This document shows positions 56,789-63,698 of a DNA stretch of 64,000 bases, piece by piece. Source of the DNA: an uncultured Eubacteriales bacterium (GTDB lineage Bacteria > Bacillota > Clostridia > Lachnospirales > Lachnospiraceae); assembly GCA_900539455.1 (NCBI GenBank), contig UQCD01000003.1, positions 41,485 through 105,484 on the forward strand, in the 5' to 3' direction. The notes beneath the pieces are model-generated. The model did no database searches. It was given only the letters and a program-made list of their open reading frames with translations, and was not told the origin of the DNA. The position numbers and the translations under genes are program-made. Within the stretch, counting starts at the first letter, position 1. Each line of letters starts with the position of its first letter.

Positions 56789-58114
56789 TTATAGCATTTC
56801 TTTATCTACTACAGATAATACCTCATCTAACTTTTCAAGTTCCTCTAACAACTGTTCTTCAGTAATGATTAATGGTGGATTTACAAAAATCATATTTTCA
56901 TGGGAATATGTCATAAATCCTTTCTTTTTAAGCATACCAACAATCTTGCCCATCTTTCCTTCCGGGTCTTTACCATATGGAACTAATGGCTCCTTTGTTT
57001 CTCTATCTTTTACCAGCTCAATACTTGAGAACAATCCAATATATCTGACATCGCCGATGCTTATATGCTTTTCTTTAAATTCTTCAAGCTTTTCTCCAAG
57101 CACCTTGCCTACCTTATTTACATTATCTAAAACCTTTGCATCATCATAATACTTAACGCAGGCAACTCCGGCAGCACAAGCAAGTGGATGTCCGCTGTAG
57201 GTAAGACCACAAGAAAGTACATGATCATCAAAATATTCAGCAATCTTTTTGCTGACAACTACGCCGCCAAGCTGAACATAGCCACAGGTAACACCTTTTG
57301 CAAAGGTTACAATATCAGGCTTTACATCAAAGTTTTCAAATGCGAAAAGCTTTCCTGTTCTGCCCCAGCCTGCCATTACTTCATCGCAAACCATCAAAAT
57401 TCCAAATTCATCACAAAGCTTTCTAACGCCTGGTAAATATCCCTTAGGAGGAATGATTACACCATTTGAGCCTGTAATTGTTTCCATAAAGATTGCAGCA
57501 ATATTATCTGCTCCTTCATATATAATCTGTTCTCTCAGCTTGCCTAAATAATATTCTGTAGCAGCCTCTTCGCTTTCAAATGGAAGCTTTTCTCTATATA
57601 CATATGGGTCAAAGAATTTTACGAAGCCCGGAACTCCTGGCTCTAAGGCGTATCTTCTAGGCTCTCCTGTAAGGTTACCTGCTCCAAAGGAAGAACCATG
57701 ATAGCTTCTATATCTACTCATTATCTTATTTCTTCCTGTAAACATTCTTGCAATCTTTACTGCATTTTCGTTTGCATCTGCACCAGCGTTGGTGAAGAAT
57801 ACTTTTCCCATATTGTCAGGCATTCTGTTTATAATCATTTCAGCTAACTCTGATCTGGGTGCTGATGCGTAGCTGGGTGCTACATAACAATATTTATCCA
57901 CCTGCTCCTTAATTGCATCTGCAATAGCTTTATTACCAAAGCCTACATTCAAATTAACTAACTGTGCCGACATATCTGTATATCTATTTCCGTCATAATC
58001 CCACATATAAATTCCTTCTGCTTTTTCGATAGGAATAGGATTTAAACCTTTCTGTTTACTCCAAGATTGTAAATTGTACTTTAAATGTTTTTCTACTACT
58101 TCTTTACCTGTCAT
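56789..58114 (-). CDS. Class-III (omega) PLP-dependent aminotransferase
   Basis: PLP-lysine region DIVTFAKGVTCGY and Asp in VCDEVMAGWGRTG. The start is placed at MTGKEVVEKH (AAGGAG RBS); the track ORF is extended 43 codons into the upstream hairpin region. Confidence 0.8.
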   Translation of the reverse strand: MTGKEVVEKHLKYNLQSWSKQKGLNPIPIEKAEGIYMWDYDGNRYTDMSAQLVNLNVGFGNKAIADAIKEQVDKYCYVAPSYASAPRSELAEMIINRMPDNMGKVFFTNAGADANENAVKIARMFTGRNKIMSRYRSYHGSSFGAGNLTGEPRRYALEPGVPGFVKFFDPYVYREKLPFESEEAATEYYLGKLREQIIYEGADNIAAIFMETITGSNGVIIPPKGYLPGVRKLCDEFGILMVCDEVMAGWGRTGKLFAFENFDVKPDIVTFAKGVTCGYVQLGGVVVSKKIAEYFDDHVLSCGLTYSGHPLACAAGVACVKYYDDAKVLDNVNKVGKVLGEKLEEFKEKHISIGDVRYIGLFSSIELVKDRETKEPLVPYGKDPEGKMGKIVGMLKKKGFMTYSHENMIFVNPPLIITEEQLLEELEKLDEVLSVVDKEML

Positions 58115-58398
58115 ATCTCTTTTCTCCTTTTCAAAAGACATATTTGCTAACTCAGCAAAAACAAAAAAGCAAGGGCAACCTTTTAAAAGCGCCTTTGCTT
58201 TTTTCAACTGTTTATTTACTTTTTCCTGCCTGCTGTTTAGCATATCTGTATTATATTTTTTGTGAGAAAATTTTCAATAACAAAAATCACAATTATTCTT
58301 GTGCATATGCACAACATAGTAAATCCATACTAAATATACTTCGCATCTGTACAATTAATAATAAATAATGCTTGTACTACCAAGCAGCTTATTATTTA

Positions 58399-59553
58399 TT
58401 ATAATTTCTCTATGTCTAAAACCATTTTTATAAGCAACAGATTATCCAGCTTTGTAATATCCATATTTATTATGCTTTCTATTTTTGATATTTTATAATT
58501 AACAGTATTTCTATGAATAAACAAATCATCTGCTGTTTTCTTAACACTTCCGTCATTATCTATATATATTTTCAGGAAATCATATAAATCTGTTCCATTA
58601 TTTTTGTCATATTGTATAAGTCCACCTAAGGTAGTTCTTTCTATTTCATTAAGCACCTTTTTATCCTTTACTGACAAAAGCACCTTTTCTATTCCAAGAG
58701 TATTATAATAAAGAATATCTACATTCTTTTTTACACACATAGAATATATATCTCTTGCTCTTTCAAAATTTACATCTAGGCTGTTAAGACTTTCTTCATT
58801 GGAGGATACTGCTATATACAGCCTCTTTCTTGTATTGGAATAATATAAAAGGCTGTTCATTAATTCCCGCTGCCCACTATCTGACATTCCAGCAGTAACT
58901 ATTACAAGCTTTCTTTCATACCAGAAAAGTACATATTTTCCCGACTGTGTTTTTTCTATTTCTCTTCGTGCATATATTTCCAAGCTTTGATTATCACTTT
59001 CTACTGAACGAAGGCTGGTATCTATTCCAACAAATATAACACAATAGTTTATATCCCTTTGTAAGCCTCTTCTTTCAAGTATTTCTTGTATTCGTTTTCG
59101 TTCAGCAGGGTAAAATATATAATCCTTAACATTACTGACCAGACTTTTTTCATTGGTTTCGCTATTAAATATTTTTTCACATAGACCTCTGGTTACATCA
59201 ACAAGTCTGGTTTCCCACGGACATACATATAATGGGAAGTTCTTTTCATCACAATATTCAATGATTTTTCTATCTACCTTGCTAATATATGGTCCAATAT
59301 TTATAACCAAGGCACTGGCATTACTTTCAATAAGTGCAGCTATGTAGGAAATCATTGCCTCACTATCCTTGCCAATATTTCCAATTCCTGTAGTAAATAC
59401 CAGCTCATTGCCATTAAGGAATTGAGATACCTCTACATCTTCAATAATATGCACCCAGGAAACCACATTATACAAACCACCCTTTCCAGCAATAAGCTGC
59501 ATTCTGTAATTTTCGTATGCCTTCTGGCAAAGCTTTGCTAATGTAATAGCCAT
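58399..59553 (-). CDS. PucR-family transcriptional regulator (PucR/CdaR type with a C-terminal HTH)
   Basis: N-terminal PucR-like domain (LQLIAGKGGL...WVHIIED) and a C-terminal helix-turn-helix (VKKTADDLFIHRNTVNYKISKIESI). Confidence 0.75.
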   Translation of the reverse strand: MAITLAKLCQKAYENYRMQLIAGKGGLYNVVSWVHIIEDVEVSQFLNGNELVFTTGIGNIGKDSEAMISYIAALIESNASALVINIGPYISKVDRKIIEYCDEKNFPLYVCPWETRLVDVTRGLCEKIFNSETNEKSLVSNVKDYIFYPAERKRIQEILERRGLQRDINYCVIFVGIDTSLRSVESDNQSLEIYARREIEKTQSGKYVLFWYERKLVIVTAGMSDSGQRELMNSLLYYSNTRKRLYIAVSSNEESLNSLDVNFERARDIYSMCVKKNVDILYYNTLGIEKVLLSVKDKKVLNEIERTTLGGLIQYDKNNGTDLYDFLKIYIDNDGSVKKTADDLFIHRNTVNYKISKIESIINMDITKLDNLLLIKMVLDIEKL

Positions 59554-60209
59554 ATGTGTTTCTCCTTTGCACTTCTAATATTTGAAAAATATGTGGTTTT
59601 GATTTTCTCCCATACAGTATTAATTATTTCAAAGCAGACTCGCTCTCGCTCGATTACGATGTAGCGGTACATAAAGCTAGGGAGGATTATTACTAATCTC
59701 CCCTAGCTTAAGTACCGACATCTCCATACGGTCTGCTTTCAAAATTATTAATACTGTATGTCCGAAAATAAATCTACACTTCATCAATATTTATATTTTT
59801 TATCCCGCTGTATTTTCAAATAAACTCACCTCTATAGCAACATCGTATCACATAAAATCAAAATATGATTATGATTAACTACTATTTTTCTTTGCTTGTA
59901 TACTCACATTTACATATTGTCTGTTTTCTAAATTGTTAATACTGTATGCCTAAAACAAATATACTCTTCTCAAATATTATTATAGGGGTGCCAATATTTA
60001 CTTGTAATAGGCTTTGCTTTCTCGTAGACATATTGAAAGCTTTCTTAGTTTTTCTTTTTTGGCAATTCCCTTTCAGCCCTATATTAATATATTTTTGTGC
60101 ATTTGTACATAAATAATTGTCAAAAGTATGATTTTAAATTGTTTTAATATGAGTTATATTGTGCATTAGTTTAATGTGCCACAAGGCACTTAGAAAAGGA
60201 GGAATTGTT

Positions 60210-61973
60210 ATGAATTTTTCAGCAGTAAATACAGTATGGCTTCTTATTGGAACTGTTCTCATTTTCTTTATGCAGGCTGGATTTTGTATGCTAGAAGCAG
60301 GTCTTACCAGAGCTAAAAGTGCTGGTAATATTGTTATGAAGAATATTGTGGACTTTTGCATTGGCTCTGTTGTCTTTTGGGCAATCGGCTTTGGCATTAT
60401 GTATGGGTCCTCAAATGGATTTTTTGGCAAATTTGACTTTTTCACTCAAGGTAATTATTCAGCTATATTGCCAGCAGGTATACCATTCTTTGTATTTTTC
60501 ATTTTTCAGACAGTATTTTGTGGTACATCTGCAACTATTGTATCAGGTGCTATGGCAGAAAGAACCACCTTTAAGGGTTATTGCCTTGCAAGCCTTGCTA
60601 TCTCCCTATTAGTTTATCCTATGACTGGTCATTGGATCTGGGGTAATAGCTGGTTAAGTAATATGGGCTTTCACGATTTTGCCGGCTCTTGTGCAGTACA
60701 TATGGTCGGTGGCTTAGGTGCATTTCTCGGTGCATTTTTCTTAGGACCCCGTATCGGCAAATACGATAAGAACAAAAAATCAAGAGCTATTCCGGGTCAC
60801 AACCTGACCTTAGCAGCTCTGGGAATATTTATTTTATGGTTCTGCTGGTTTGGCTTTAATGGCTCATCAACTACAGCCATTGAAGGTATAACAACTGCTG
60901 CCGATGGCTCTAAGCTTTGGTTTGGTGCTTTAGCTGGCAAGGTTTTGGCTAATACAAATATTGCTGCCTGTGCTTCTACACTTACAGCACTATTTTTCAC
61001 TTGGTTTAGATATAGAAAGCCTGATGTTTCAATGACACTAAATGGCTCTTTAGCCGGTCTTGTAGTTGTCACTGCTAATTCTGATTGTGTTACGATGCCT
61101 ATAGCAGCCTTAGAAGGCGTTATTGCTGGCTTTGCTGTTGTTCTGGCAGTTGAATTTATTGATAATAAGCTAAAGGTAGATGACCCTGTTGGAGCTGTAG
61201 GCGCACATTTTGTTTGCGGTATTATTGGTACTCTATCCATTGGTCTTTTCTCTACTGGTCAAAATGGCGTTGGCAAAGGACTTTTCTATGGTGGTGGCTT
61301 TAAGCAGCTAGGTATTCAGCTATTAGGTATCTTAGCTGTATGTATATATGTAACTATAGTAATGTCTATTGTATTCATTATAATTAAAAAAACTTTCGGA
61401 CTTCGTGTTAGTGCTAAAACAGAAATTGAAGGTCTTGATAATGGTGAGCATGGTCTGGCAAGTGCATATGCAGGCTTTGAATTTAATTCCTCTAGCTTAT
61501 CAGAAAGCGCACTTTATGATGATATTGACTCCTTAGATATTGAAGCCATTGGCAGTGAAGCTGTGGATAAGGCAGTTCCAGCCTTTATTCAAAATTCATC
61601 CTTACCTGAGGATAAAAAAATCACTAAAATACAGGTTCTTATGAAGGAGTCTAAATTCGAGCGATTTAAAAAGGCTATGAATGATATAGGTGTTATGGGT
61701 ATGACAGTTACTCATGTATTAGGCTGTGGTACACAAAAGGGTGCAACTGAATATTATAGAGGTGTTGAAATGGAAATGCAACTGCTTCCAAAAATTCAGG
61801 TGGACATTGTTGTTTCCAAAGTACCTGTTATGGATGTAATCAATGCTACAAGAAAAGCCTTATATACAGGTCATATTGGTGATGGTAAAATATTTGTCTA
61901 TGATGTTGAGGATGTTGTTAAGGTAAGAACTGGAGAAACAGGCTATACAGCACTTCAGGGGGCGGACGAATAA
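60210..61973 (+). CDS. amt: Ammonium transporter (Amt) fused at its C-terminus to a PII (GlnK/GlnB) nitrogen-regulatory domain
   Basis: Amt N-terminus AVNTVWLLIGTVLIFFMQAGFCMLEAGLTRAKSAGNI and ~11 TM helices. After a linker, the last ~110 aa (KITKIQVLMK...GTQKGATEYYRGVEMEM...GDGKIFVYDVEDVVKVRTGETG) form a PII fold with the T-loop Tyr. AAAAGGAGG lies 7 nt upstream of the ATG at 60210. Confidence 0.85.
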   Translation: MNFSAVNTVWLLIGTVLIFFMQAGFCMLEAGLTRAKSAGNIVMKNIVDFCIGSVVFWAIGFGIMYGSSNGFFGKFDFFTQGNYSAILPAGIPFFVFFIFQTVFCGTSATIVSGAMAERTTFKGYCLASLAISLLVYPMTGHWIWGNSWLSNMGFHDFAGSCAVHMVGGLGAFLGAFFLGPRIGKYDKNKKSRAIPGHNLTLAALGIFILWFCWFGFNGSSTTAIEGITTAADGSKLWFGALAGKVLANTNIAACASTLTALFFTWFRYRKPDVSMTLNGSLAGLVVVTANSDCVTMPIAALEGVIAGFAVVLAVEFIDNKLKVDDPVGAVGAHFVCGIIGTLSIGLFSTGQNGVGKGLFYGGGFKQLGIQLLGILAVCIYVTIVMSIVFIIIKKTFGLRVSAKTEIEGLDNGEHGLASAYAGFEFNSSSLSESALYDDIDSLDIEAIGSEAVDKAVPAFIQNSSLPEDKKITKIQVLMKESKFERFKKAMNDIGVMGMTVTHVLGCGTQKGATEYYRGVEMEMQLLPKIQVDIVVSKVPVMDVINATRKALYTGHIGDGKIFVYDVEDVVKVRTGETGYTALQGADE

Positions 61974-62003
61974 ATATATTCCTTGTATATAAAGGAGAAT
62001 TCT

Positions 62004-62155: not shown

Positions 62156-62908
62156 TTAAAAGAGGTTCTTTCTCATTTTTAATAATATCTTTTTTTCCAT
62201 TCTGCTGACCTGCACCTGACTTATTCCTAGAACCTTTGCCACCTCTACCTGGGTCTTGTCCTTATAATATCGTAAAATTATTAACTCCTTTTCCCGTGGA
62301 TCCAGCTTTTCTATTATTTCCTTAAGCACCATATGATTAATTAAATTGTCCTTTTCTGTATCCTCTGAAATATTAATATTTTCAATACTGTTGCTTATTC
62401 CGTCCTTTGAAATTTTATCTACCAGATATATCTCATTGCCGTCATTTTGATAAATGGTTTTGTGTATTGATTCAACCTCAATATTAGCCTCCATAGTCAT
62501 AATTATTTCTTCACTACTCATCTCCAGCTTTTCAGCAATTTCTTCAATAGTCGGCTCTCTGTTTAATTTTATACTTAGCTCTCCTACTGCCTTGCTTATT
62601 TTATAATTATTTTCCTTAAGACTTCTGCTTACCTTAATAATACCATCATCTCTTAAAAATCTTTTTATTTCACCTGTTATCATAGGTACAGCATAGGTGG
62701 AAAACTGCACATTAAAGGTTATATCAAATTTGTCTATTGCCTTTAATATACCAATACAGCCAATTTGAAACAAGTCCTCCATTTCGTATCCTCGTCCGGA
62801 AAATCTTTTAACAATACTCCATATAAGCCCCACATTTTCATTTACCAGTAAATCCCTAGCTTCCTTATCTCCATTATGTGCCAGTTTTATCATTTCCAGA
62901 TTGTCCAC
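62156..62908 (-). CDS. sigF: Sporulation sigma factor SigF
   Basis: Region 2 (DLFQIGCIGILKAIDKFD) and region 4 HTH (QVEVAKVLGISQVQVSRMEK). A GTG start with an AAGGGG RBS is preferred (250 aa); the track ORF starts at a TTG. Confidence 0.85.
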   Translation of the reverse strand: MDNLEMIKLAHNGDKEARDLLVNENVGLIWSIVKRFSGRGYEMEDLFQIGCIGILKAIDKFDITFNVQFSTYAVPMITGEIKRFLRDDGIIKVSRSLKENNYKISKAVGELSIKLNREPTIEEIAEKLEMSSEEIIMTMEANIEVESIHKTIYQNDGNEIYLVDKISKDGISNSIENINISEDTEKDNLINHMVLKEIIEKLDPREKELIILRYYKDKTQVEVAKVLGISQVQVSRMEKKILLKMRKNLF

Positions 62909-62941
62909 TATATCACCCCTTATCAATTACCTCTTAATGCT

Positions 62942-63394
62942 CTATATTTCCTGCTTGCCTATAGTTTTCATCATTTTAACTATAGTTCCATCATTTACCT
63001 TTGAAATTACCTCTATTTCATCCATAAATACTTCCATAAATACAAAGCCCATACCTGACCTTTCCTCATCTGGCTTTGTTGTAAAAAGCGGCTTTCTTGC
63101 CTCATTGACATTTTCTATTCCACAACCCTTATCTAATACTTCTATGTATAGCTGTCTGTTTAATGCCGCCAGTTTCATAACTACATTTCCCTTATTATGC
63201 TCATAGCCATGAACTATTGCGTTAGTCACTGCTTCAGATACTGCTGTTTTTATATCATTAATTTCCTCAATGGTAGGGTCTAATCTGGTAGCAAAGGTTG
63301 CAGCTATTACTCTGGCCAGTCTTTCATTTTCTGATATACTATAAAAGCTAACCTCCATTTTGTTATCCACCTTTAATTCTTCAATACTAATCAT
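62942..63394 (-). CDS. spoIIAB: Anti-sigma F factor / serine kinase SpoIIAB
   Basis: GHKL kinase motifs (EAVTNAIVHGY; DKGCGI; GMGF). The start at MISIEELK is preceded by AAGGAAG and lies 4 nt after the spoIIAA stop. Confidence 0.85.
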   Translation of the reverse strand: MISIEELKVDNKMEVSFYSISENERLARVIAATFATRLDPTIEEINDIKTAVSEAVTNAIVHGYEHNKGNVVMKLAALNRQLYIEVLDKGCGIENVNEARKPLFTTKPDEERSGMGFVFMEVFMDEIEVISKVNDGTIVKMMKTIGKQEI

Positions 63395-63398
63395 TCTT

Positions 63399-63698
63399 CT
63401 ACTTCCTTTCAATTATTTTATAGAGCCCTGAAATCAAAAAAATTCTTTCTATATTTTTATTAATATTTGTTACATAAACATTTCCACCTATTGCCTCTAA
63501 CAGCTTATATCTTCCCATAATAATACCAATTCCGGAGCTATCCATAAAATTAGTATTTGTAAAATCAAAGCCTATAGTTTTAACCCTCCCCTTCATTACC
63601 TCTGAATCTATTTTTTCCTTTGTAATGTTTGCATTATGGTGGTCCAGCTCACTATCAAGAAAAACTACCATTTCTTCGTTTTCAATCTTATATTTCAT
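63399..63698 (-). CDS. spoIIAA: Anti-sigma F factor antagonist SpoIIAA (STAS domain)
   Basis: 99-aa STAS fold with the phosphorylatable Ser in FMDSSGIG. Confidence 0.85.
   Translation of the reverse strand: MKYKIENEEMVVFLDSELDHHNANITKEKIDSEVMKGRVKTIGFDFTNTNFMDSSGIGIIMGRYKLLEAIGGNVYVTNINKNIERIFLISGLYKIIERK

Follow-up and report, generated by a model that had tools for sequence, protein, structure and literature searches.

The pucR–amt spacer and the palindrome P1

Within the window, i.e., the whole stretch of DNA analyzed here (64,000 nt), the gene for a PucR-family regulator (pucR) and that for an ammonium transporter fused to a P-II domain (Amt-PII; amt) both start at a common spacer and diverge from it, as the initial annotation had it. 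The spacer contains an imperfect palindrome, designated P1, together with the following features:

58399–59553, minus strand: pucR, PucR-family regulator gene (Pfam PF07905, PF13556)
59602–59613, unstranded: pucR-side copy of a 12-bp direct repeat, ATGGGAGAAAAT in the pucR sense, overlapping the first 3 nt of P1
59611–59760, unstranded: P1, imperfect palindrome of 150 nt, predicted to form about 60 pairs in three nested helices
59611–59639, unstranded: pucR-proximal outer arm of P1, CATACAGTATTAATTATTTCAAAGCAGAC (sequence reading and inverted-repeat search)
59658–59722, unstranded: middle stem of P1 (GATGT.GCGGTAC / GTACCG.ACATC), enclosing the central hairpin
59677–59784, minus strand: 35-aa ORF, MKCRFIFGHTVLIILKADRMEMSVLKLGEISNNPP, wholly inside the inserted unit and called by gene finders in some assemblies
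59731–59760, unstranded: amt-proximal outer arm of P1, GTCTGCTTTCAAAATTATTAATACTGTATG (sequence reading, inverted repeat and fold)
59761–59788, unstranded: 28-nt 'spacer', outside the palindrome yet part of the inserted unit (alleles L083 vs L086/L003)
59795–59808, unstranded: amt-side copy of the 12-bp direct repeat, diverged, GCGGGATAAAAAAT in the pucR sense (allele comparison)
59823–59976, unstranded: second inserted segment, with a 7-bp direct repeat, TCAAATA, as its flanks (59816–59822 and 59970–59976)
60080–60209, unstranded: divergent promoter/leader block conserved across species (alignments, blastn and promoter scan)
60210–61973, plus strand: amt, ammonium transporter fused to a P-II domain (Pfam PF00909, PF00543)

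Amt-PII is a single protein of 587 aa with a C-terminal, GlnK-like P-II domain, and the fusion is kept in all relatives examined. The nearest named homologues of the window PucR are found in Lachnospiraceae MAGs. An operon of the spoIIAA-spoIIAB-sigF type (STAS protein, anti-sigma kinase and sigma-70 family factor) adjoins amt (62156–63698, minus strand), so the host is probably a spore-forming member of the Clostridia.

All sequences quoted for the palindrome in the initial annotation are present in the window, while the span given for it (59601–59750) was 10–11 nt too low, the true one being 59611–59760. The outer arms (59611–59639 and 59731–59760) pair with one mismatch and one bulge, a complementarity of about 91%; in allele L071 they are perfectly complementary (29/29). 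The halves of the middle stem lie at 59658–59670 and 59712–59722, and the central hairpin (59674–59709) has 16 bp; its loop had been described as 12 nt long, but the stem continues via ATTA/TAAT and leaves a loop of only 4 nt. The predicted folding energy of P1 is −64.3 kcal/mol on the plus strand (z −10.4) and −70.6 kcal/mol on the minus strand (z −9.2), in both cases equalled by none of 200 shuffles. An inverted-repeat scan found P1 to be the only long inverted repeat of its size in the 64-kb window. It has 39% G+C, with AT-rich arms and an interior GC (0.39) above that of the surrounding spacer, and its end is 58 nt upstream of the pucR start codon. A scan of 59400–60300 found no terminator-like site, and no T run follows the hairpin on either strand; together with both neighbours starting here, this bears out the earlier view that P1 is not a conventional terminator.

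The conserved block at 60080–60209 holds the promoter and leader of amt, and we infer that the pucR promoter is within it as well. All variable DNA of the spacer sits between this block and pucR. Two promoter-like matches face pucR, one read by eye (TGTACA-17-TAATAT, 60109 to 60081) and one found by the promoter scan (ATTACA-18-TATAAT, 60008 to 59979). No other promoter block is conserved across species, and this one is situated between amt and all of the variable DNA; P1 therefore probably lies within, and is transcribed as part of, a long 5' leader of pucR, as the promoter-like matches and the conservation pattern suggest.

The block also contains two direct copies of TTGTGCATT(T/A)GT (60095–60106 and 60159–60170, plus strand), 64 nt apart, which are better candidates for regulator-binding sites than the arms of the palindrome; by eye, they depart from the TnrA/GlnR consensus TGTNAN7TNACA. 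Immediately ahead of the amt ribosome-binding site is a small hairpin, GTGCC-ACAA-GGCAC (60176–60189, plus strand), a possible leader element of amt. Relatives keep it: L062 shows a compensatory change to GTGTC/GACAC, and L061 has a G.U intermediate as read on the amt-sense strand. The species with a 57% identical PucR lacks it. Near the N-terminus of the amt coding sequence (…VNTVW…), TAAATACAGTATG (60226–60238, plus strand) resembles the arm motif reversed, with two mismatches, probably by coincidence.

Spacer alleles and the duplicated half-unit

The synteny of amt-PII, divergent pucR, a class-III aminotransferase gene and SBP_5 is kept in the loci of all relatives. Where PucR is 86, 78, 59 and 57% identical, the spacers measure about 310, 172, 270 and 175 nt, respectively, and neither blastn nor a covariance model found a match to P1 in the orthologous spacers of the four related species.

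Within the species, 22 loci including the window were compared, all with a PucR at least 94% identical to that of the window. They carry 14 distinct spacer alleles, from 251 to 713 nt in length. P1 is present in 18 of the loci, in seven sequence variants with mutual identities of at least 97%, while three loci (L003, L077 and L086) have empty alleles and one (L085, with a spacer of 251 nt) retains a 19-nt stump, the last 19 nt of the pucR-proximal arm. L085 has also lost the stretch of backbone that joined the conserved block to this stump, and with it the promoter-like match at 60008–59979, and its pucR is still intact.

The haplotypes of L083 (501 nt) and L086/L003 (330 nt) are otherwise identical, the filled allele being longer by 175 nt. 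This insert consists of the 28-nt spacer followed by P1 minus its last three bases, and is bracketed by a perfect 12-bp direct repeat (ATGGGAGAAAAT), which is imperfect in other alleles. Set against the empty alleles, the filled one shows the insert reaching 28 nt beyond the inverted arm on its amt side. The three nucleotides next to the arms are TCC/TCC in the window and TCC, TAC or TAT across alleles; a 3-bp target duplication was considered for them and rejected, as it is not retained in other alleles.

Other alleles show further rearrangement of the spacer. L070 and L071 are recombinants between the two homologous spacers. A different palindrome of up to 248 nt, unrelated to P1, occupies the amt-proximal spacer in L070 (1973–2220), L079 and L087, is partial in L002 and is reduced to its outermost part in L004. 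Its right arm is ancestral backbone and its left arm an inverted paralogue (31 + 34 nt, 91–94% complementary), which indicates that this spacer makes palindromes locally.

An inverted repeat, TAATATTTGAAAA / TTCTCAAATATTA, is found at 59576–59588 and 59967–59979 of the window. In the empty allele it forms a hairpin of 11–13 bp with a loop of about 45 nt, and in the window allele every inserted stretch falls within that loop. A 16-nt tandem unit (AAAATCAAAACCAYAT in the pucR sense, about 59585–59606, plus strand) directly precedes the pucR ribosome-binding site and occurs in one or two copies among L003, L004 and L088. The pucR-proximal flank exists as two diverged haplotypes. In a divergent strain (L071 and L072; 344–1499), pucR has about 90% DNA identity and is split into ORFs of 75 and 287 aa, possibly making it a pseudogene; the adjoining spacer shares 98.5% identity with its main-lineage counterpart, which makes the locus a recombination mosaic. 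At L078 (11815–13366), amt is cut down to its P-II part and joined directly to an ABC ATPase gene, the deletion having removed the amt N-terminus, the spacer, pucR, the aminotransferase gene and the first transporter genes.

The third copy of the arm end described in the initial annotation is present (AAATTGTTAATACTGTATGCC at 59930–59950, 188 nt from the matching arm of P1), but it is not a mere arm end, since the repeat to which it belongs is 95 nt long and continues 28 nt past the palindrome. This direct repeat (59881–59976 vs 59694–59788) has 70 of 93 positions identical (75%; z 10.3, with none of 2000 shuffles as high) and comprises the amt-proximal half of P1 plus the 28 nt beyond it, so that the 28-nt spacer (59761–59788) also recurs in the second half-unit. 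In the second segment, nothing corresponds significantly to the pucR-proximal half of P1. The repeat at 59881–59976 lacks a complementary partner and is thus not another palindrome. The copy is carried by the second inserted segment (59823–59969 between the flank repeats, with the third-copy arm at 59919–59948), which is restricted to window-type alleles and is missing from the P1-bearing L083, L088, L079 and L002.

Further copies, mobile elements and structural conservation

Neither blastn with 7-nt words nor an inverted-repeat scan nor an unfiltered covariance-model search detected a second copy of P1 in the 64-kb window, and none was found in the additional host sequence that flanks the window (about 20 kb over both sides) or in the loci of relatives. 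Phage and plasmid collections gave no blastn match. A pattern of the arms with 20 specified bases was scanned against genome (185,579 species genomes), metagenome and viral contig collections, yielding 12, 41 and 1 hits, respectively, all of them single chance matches and none element-like by blastn; these scans missed the host's own locus, and so they say nothing firm on the host genome. A protein-word search with a 41-aa frame across the element gave no candidate. Many dispersed copies, which the initial annotation had named as the mark of a MITE/REP element, were thus found in none of the places searched, though host DNA beyond the roughly 84 kb covered may hold others.

The 35-aa ORF served as a proxy for further copies. 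It forms only two clusters among 5.8 billion, and all of its variants match alleles of the pucR/amt locus: I, V or G at position 8, a read-through W, an L to P change and an MKIL extension could each be tied to known alleles. These clusters occur on 35 and 2 contigs, compared with several hundred contigs for pucR; given that the ORF is called in 3 of 17 P1-bearing loci sampled, such counts fit a single locus. Where a change in the stem removes the stop codon, the ORF lengthens to 51 aa. A Type I toxin was considered and rejected, as the ORF is without a ribosome-binding site, its hydrophobic stretch is short, and its stop and residues vary; it is probably spurious.

The general features of bacterial MITEs have been listed (PMC3184786), and the size, arms, fold and polymorphism of P1 resemble them. 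P1 shares with Correia, ERIC/RU-1, RUP and bcr1-type elements a length below 200 nt, a non-coding, intergenic character, long inverted arms (29 nt), a fold that is stable at the DNA/RNA level, presence/absence polymorphism and a flanking direct repeat, here a perfect one of 12 bp. At 150–175 nt it is small and transposase-free, with only the probably spurious 35-aa ORF, and its fold has a z of about −10. If it were a MITE-like mobile element, other members and a parent insertion sequence would lie elsewhere in the host genome, and the half-copy would be the remnant of a second insertion; the two diverged, related segments side by side and an interior GC above that of the local DNA fit such an origin. 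We nevertheless regard it as rather unlikely. The inverted arms are not the terminal repeats bounding the mobile segment, as the amt-side end of the 175-nt segment is 28 nt beyond the arm, and the bases directly flanking the arms differ among alleles (TCC, TAC, TAT) and give no consistent target duplication. The roughly 84 kb of host DNA and the scanned collections yielded no second copy, neither a multi-copy family nor a parent insertion sequence came to light, and the counts of the internal ORF fit one locus. A MITE/REP-like insertion is still the nearest of the three explanations offered in the initial annotation: the insertion polymorphism with direct-repeat flanks agrees with it, while dispersed copies did not turn up in the places searched and the arms are out of register with the ends of the insert.

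Two other kinds of repeat were also compared with P1. REP/BIME sequences are G+C-rich stem-loops of about 20–40 nt present in hundreds of copies, whereas P1 is 150 nt long, has 39% G+C and occupies a single locus. Like the invertons of gut bacteria, P1 has inverted repeats around a short segment in a promoter region of a gut Clostridia member and varies between strains; unlike them, it has the same interior orientation in all 18 loci (independent assemblies), has no invertase gene nearby and is self-complementary in its interior.

Quite unlikely, in our judgement, is that P1 is a recently evolved structure under selection, either an RNA hairpin in the pucR leader or a DNA cruciform, that tunes expression of the regulator. 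Its frequency (18 of 22 loci) and its position, 58 nt ahead of the pucR start and on the pucR side of the conserved promoter block, would suit such a role, and across the seven variants 99.3% of pair cells are standard. The sole compensatory change, from U-A to C-G in the central hairpin, has a U.G intermediate, as read on the pucR-sense strand, on several haplotypes, but the covariation of this one pair is not significant (160 of 500 shuffles were as high), and template switching between the arms can mimic compensatory change (PMC5941160). The majority allele has three G.U pairs on the pucR-sense strand and none specific to the opposite strand, which would point to an RNA in the pucR sense; three against zero is too few for significance, and the strand inference was rejected. 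The 97% identity of P1 in L071 beside a pucR that is 91% identical might suggest unusual conservation; this was also rejected, as the whole L071 spacer is 98.5% identical to that of L070, against about 90% for pucR, and the difference is explained by a recombination tract over the whole spacer.

Against a selected structure stand also the empty and truncated alleles with intact pucR, and the lack of P1 in all of the related species. P1 resembles structured 5' leaders and riboswitches in its probable leader position near a start codon and in its very stable fold, but differs from them in that orthologous leaders are without it, it is dispensable within the species, and no terminator or alternative sequestering the ribosome-binding site is formed. 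An Rfam scan of 58000–62000 gave no match at E values up to 5. Judged by the criterion that the initial annotation itself named, conservation in related genomes, the suggestion of a structured small RNA or cis-regulatory leader is not supported for a conserved regulator: there is no Rfam match, four related species and some strains lack P1, and the covariation is not significant.

The initial annotation had also proposed that three copies of TTAATACTGTATG make up a multi-site operator, to be bound by PucR or by a nitrogen regulator. Three exact 13-mers do occur within 340 nt, where about five matches with two mismatches are expected by chance across the window. All three are in inserted or duplicated units, a single segment having been duplicated once in inverted and once in direct orientation, so that their repetition follows from the duplication. 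With up to two mismatches allowed, the motif was found neither in the orthologous spacers nor in the empty alleles, and the near-matches in relatives are all within the amt coding sequence. Moreover, the boxes that are conserved across species are a different pair. Such an operator is accordingly very improbable, and the comparison with orthologous promoter regions does not support it.

Equally improbable is a scar of a larger integrated element, in which attL and attR were joined after an internal deletion and the 12-bp repeat was the recombination core: the exact 12-bp direct repeat around the insert and boundaries without terminal inverted repeats would fit, but there is no integrase or recombinase among the neighbouring genes at any locus, no allele carries a larger element at the spacer, and no phage or plasmid similarity was found.

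P1 as a probable by-product of an unstable spacer

P1 is not a REP element, inverton, terminator or conserved leader RNA, is very probably no operator, and is not demonstrably a MITE. With confidence a little above even, we read it as making up most of a lineage-specific insertion, non-coding and placed in a hypervariable spacer, rather than as a conserved regulatory device. As judged from the aligned alleles, about 175 nt, made up of the 28-nt spacer and the palindrome, entered the pucR/amt spacer of one species with 12-bp repeats at its flanks, and P1 is accordingly a lineage-specific and dispensable insertion polymorphism with direct-repeat flanks in a spacer that often rearranges. It is best understood as young and of an ordinary kind, an unstable palindromic insertion or duplication, for which an orphan mobile element and a local event are the candidate origins. 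Most likely, the instability of the spacer gave rise to P1 as a by-product, and P1 does not act as a conserved gene switch.

After its entry, local duplication may have reshaped the segment and given rise to the 95-nt half-unit copy 188 nt away. Recombination between the two copies would produce further alleles, and deletions between direct repeats or within the palindrome could account for many others, including the empty ones. The likeness of the arms may have been maintained by recency, or by template-switch correction between them, and selection would not be needed.

Such a history has parallels in the quasipalindromes formed by template switching (PMC5941160), with which P1 shares a long, imperfect inverted repeat, arms that stay alike and one allele that is perfectly corrected. 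As in palindrome-stimulated deletion (PMC5941160 and work cited there), deletions in the P1 spacer end at the 7-bp and 12-bp repeats or inside an arm, and in sister alleles a second palindrome has formed from local backbone. The arms in the quasipalindrome studies are from a few to tens of nucleotides long (PMC5941160), whereas P1 measures 150 nt and has three nested helices. Two ways of deriving P1 from the ancestral spacer were tried and rejected. For an in-situ fold-back, with the palindrome reaching far into the ancestral flank, only GAAAAT.AA matches, and the similarity over 57 nt is not significant (909 of 2000 shuffles as high); derivation of the pucR-proximal arm from the ancestral junction TATTTGAAAATACAATG was likewise not significant (470 of 5000 shuffles as high).

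Two observations weigh against this reading. The GC-richer interior and the lack of a template in the empty alleles mean that some of the DNA must derive from elsewhere. In addition, the arms have been kept about 91% complementary, compared with 75% identity of the neighbouring half-copy, and this complementarity, along with the compensatory pair, could also be compatible with selection for structure. We give a slim chance to a pair of more unusual origins: a young, selected dsRNA element in the pucR leader that arose de novo by insertion and fold-back duplication, or the single visible copy of an unrecognised small mobile element that makes a 12-bp duplication and has a palindrome in its interior instead of at its ends. 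If either were true, the alleles would be a record of the birth, spread and decay of such an element in one gut species.

Under the favoured reading of P1 as a non-coding insertion, an influence on pucR is still conceivable. In the pucR leader, its RNA would fold into a hairpin of roughly 60 bp, a possible target of double-strand-specific RNase whose end is 58 nt ahead of the start codon, and this could change the processing or stability of the mRNA. P1 cannot be essential; its absence from relatives, and the empty and truncated alleles with intact pucR, make it dispensable and any effect modulatory or neutral.

The locus holds a caution for annotation, as a hairpin of 150 nt that is very stable and lies in a divergent promoter region can mimic a regulatory RNA or an operator array, and comparison with strains and relatives shows this one to be dispensable and young. 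It is also a well-resolved case of the growth and shrinkage of a bacterial intergenic spacer, from 251 to 713 nt within one species, with insertion, duplication, the formation of palindromes, and deletion between short direct repeats as the processes involved. The alleles would form a natural series for the effects of leader length and of a long hairpin on the expression of a PucR-type regulator.
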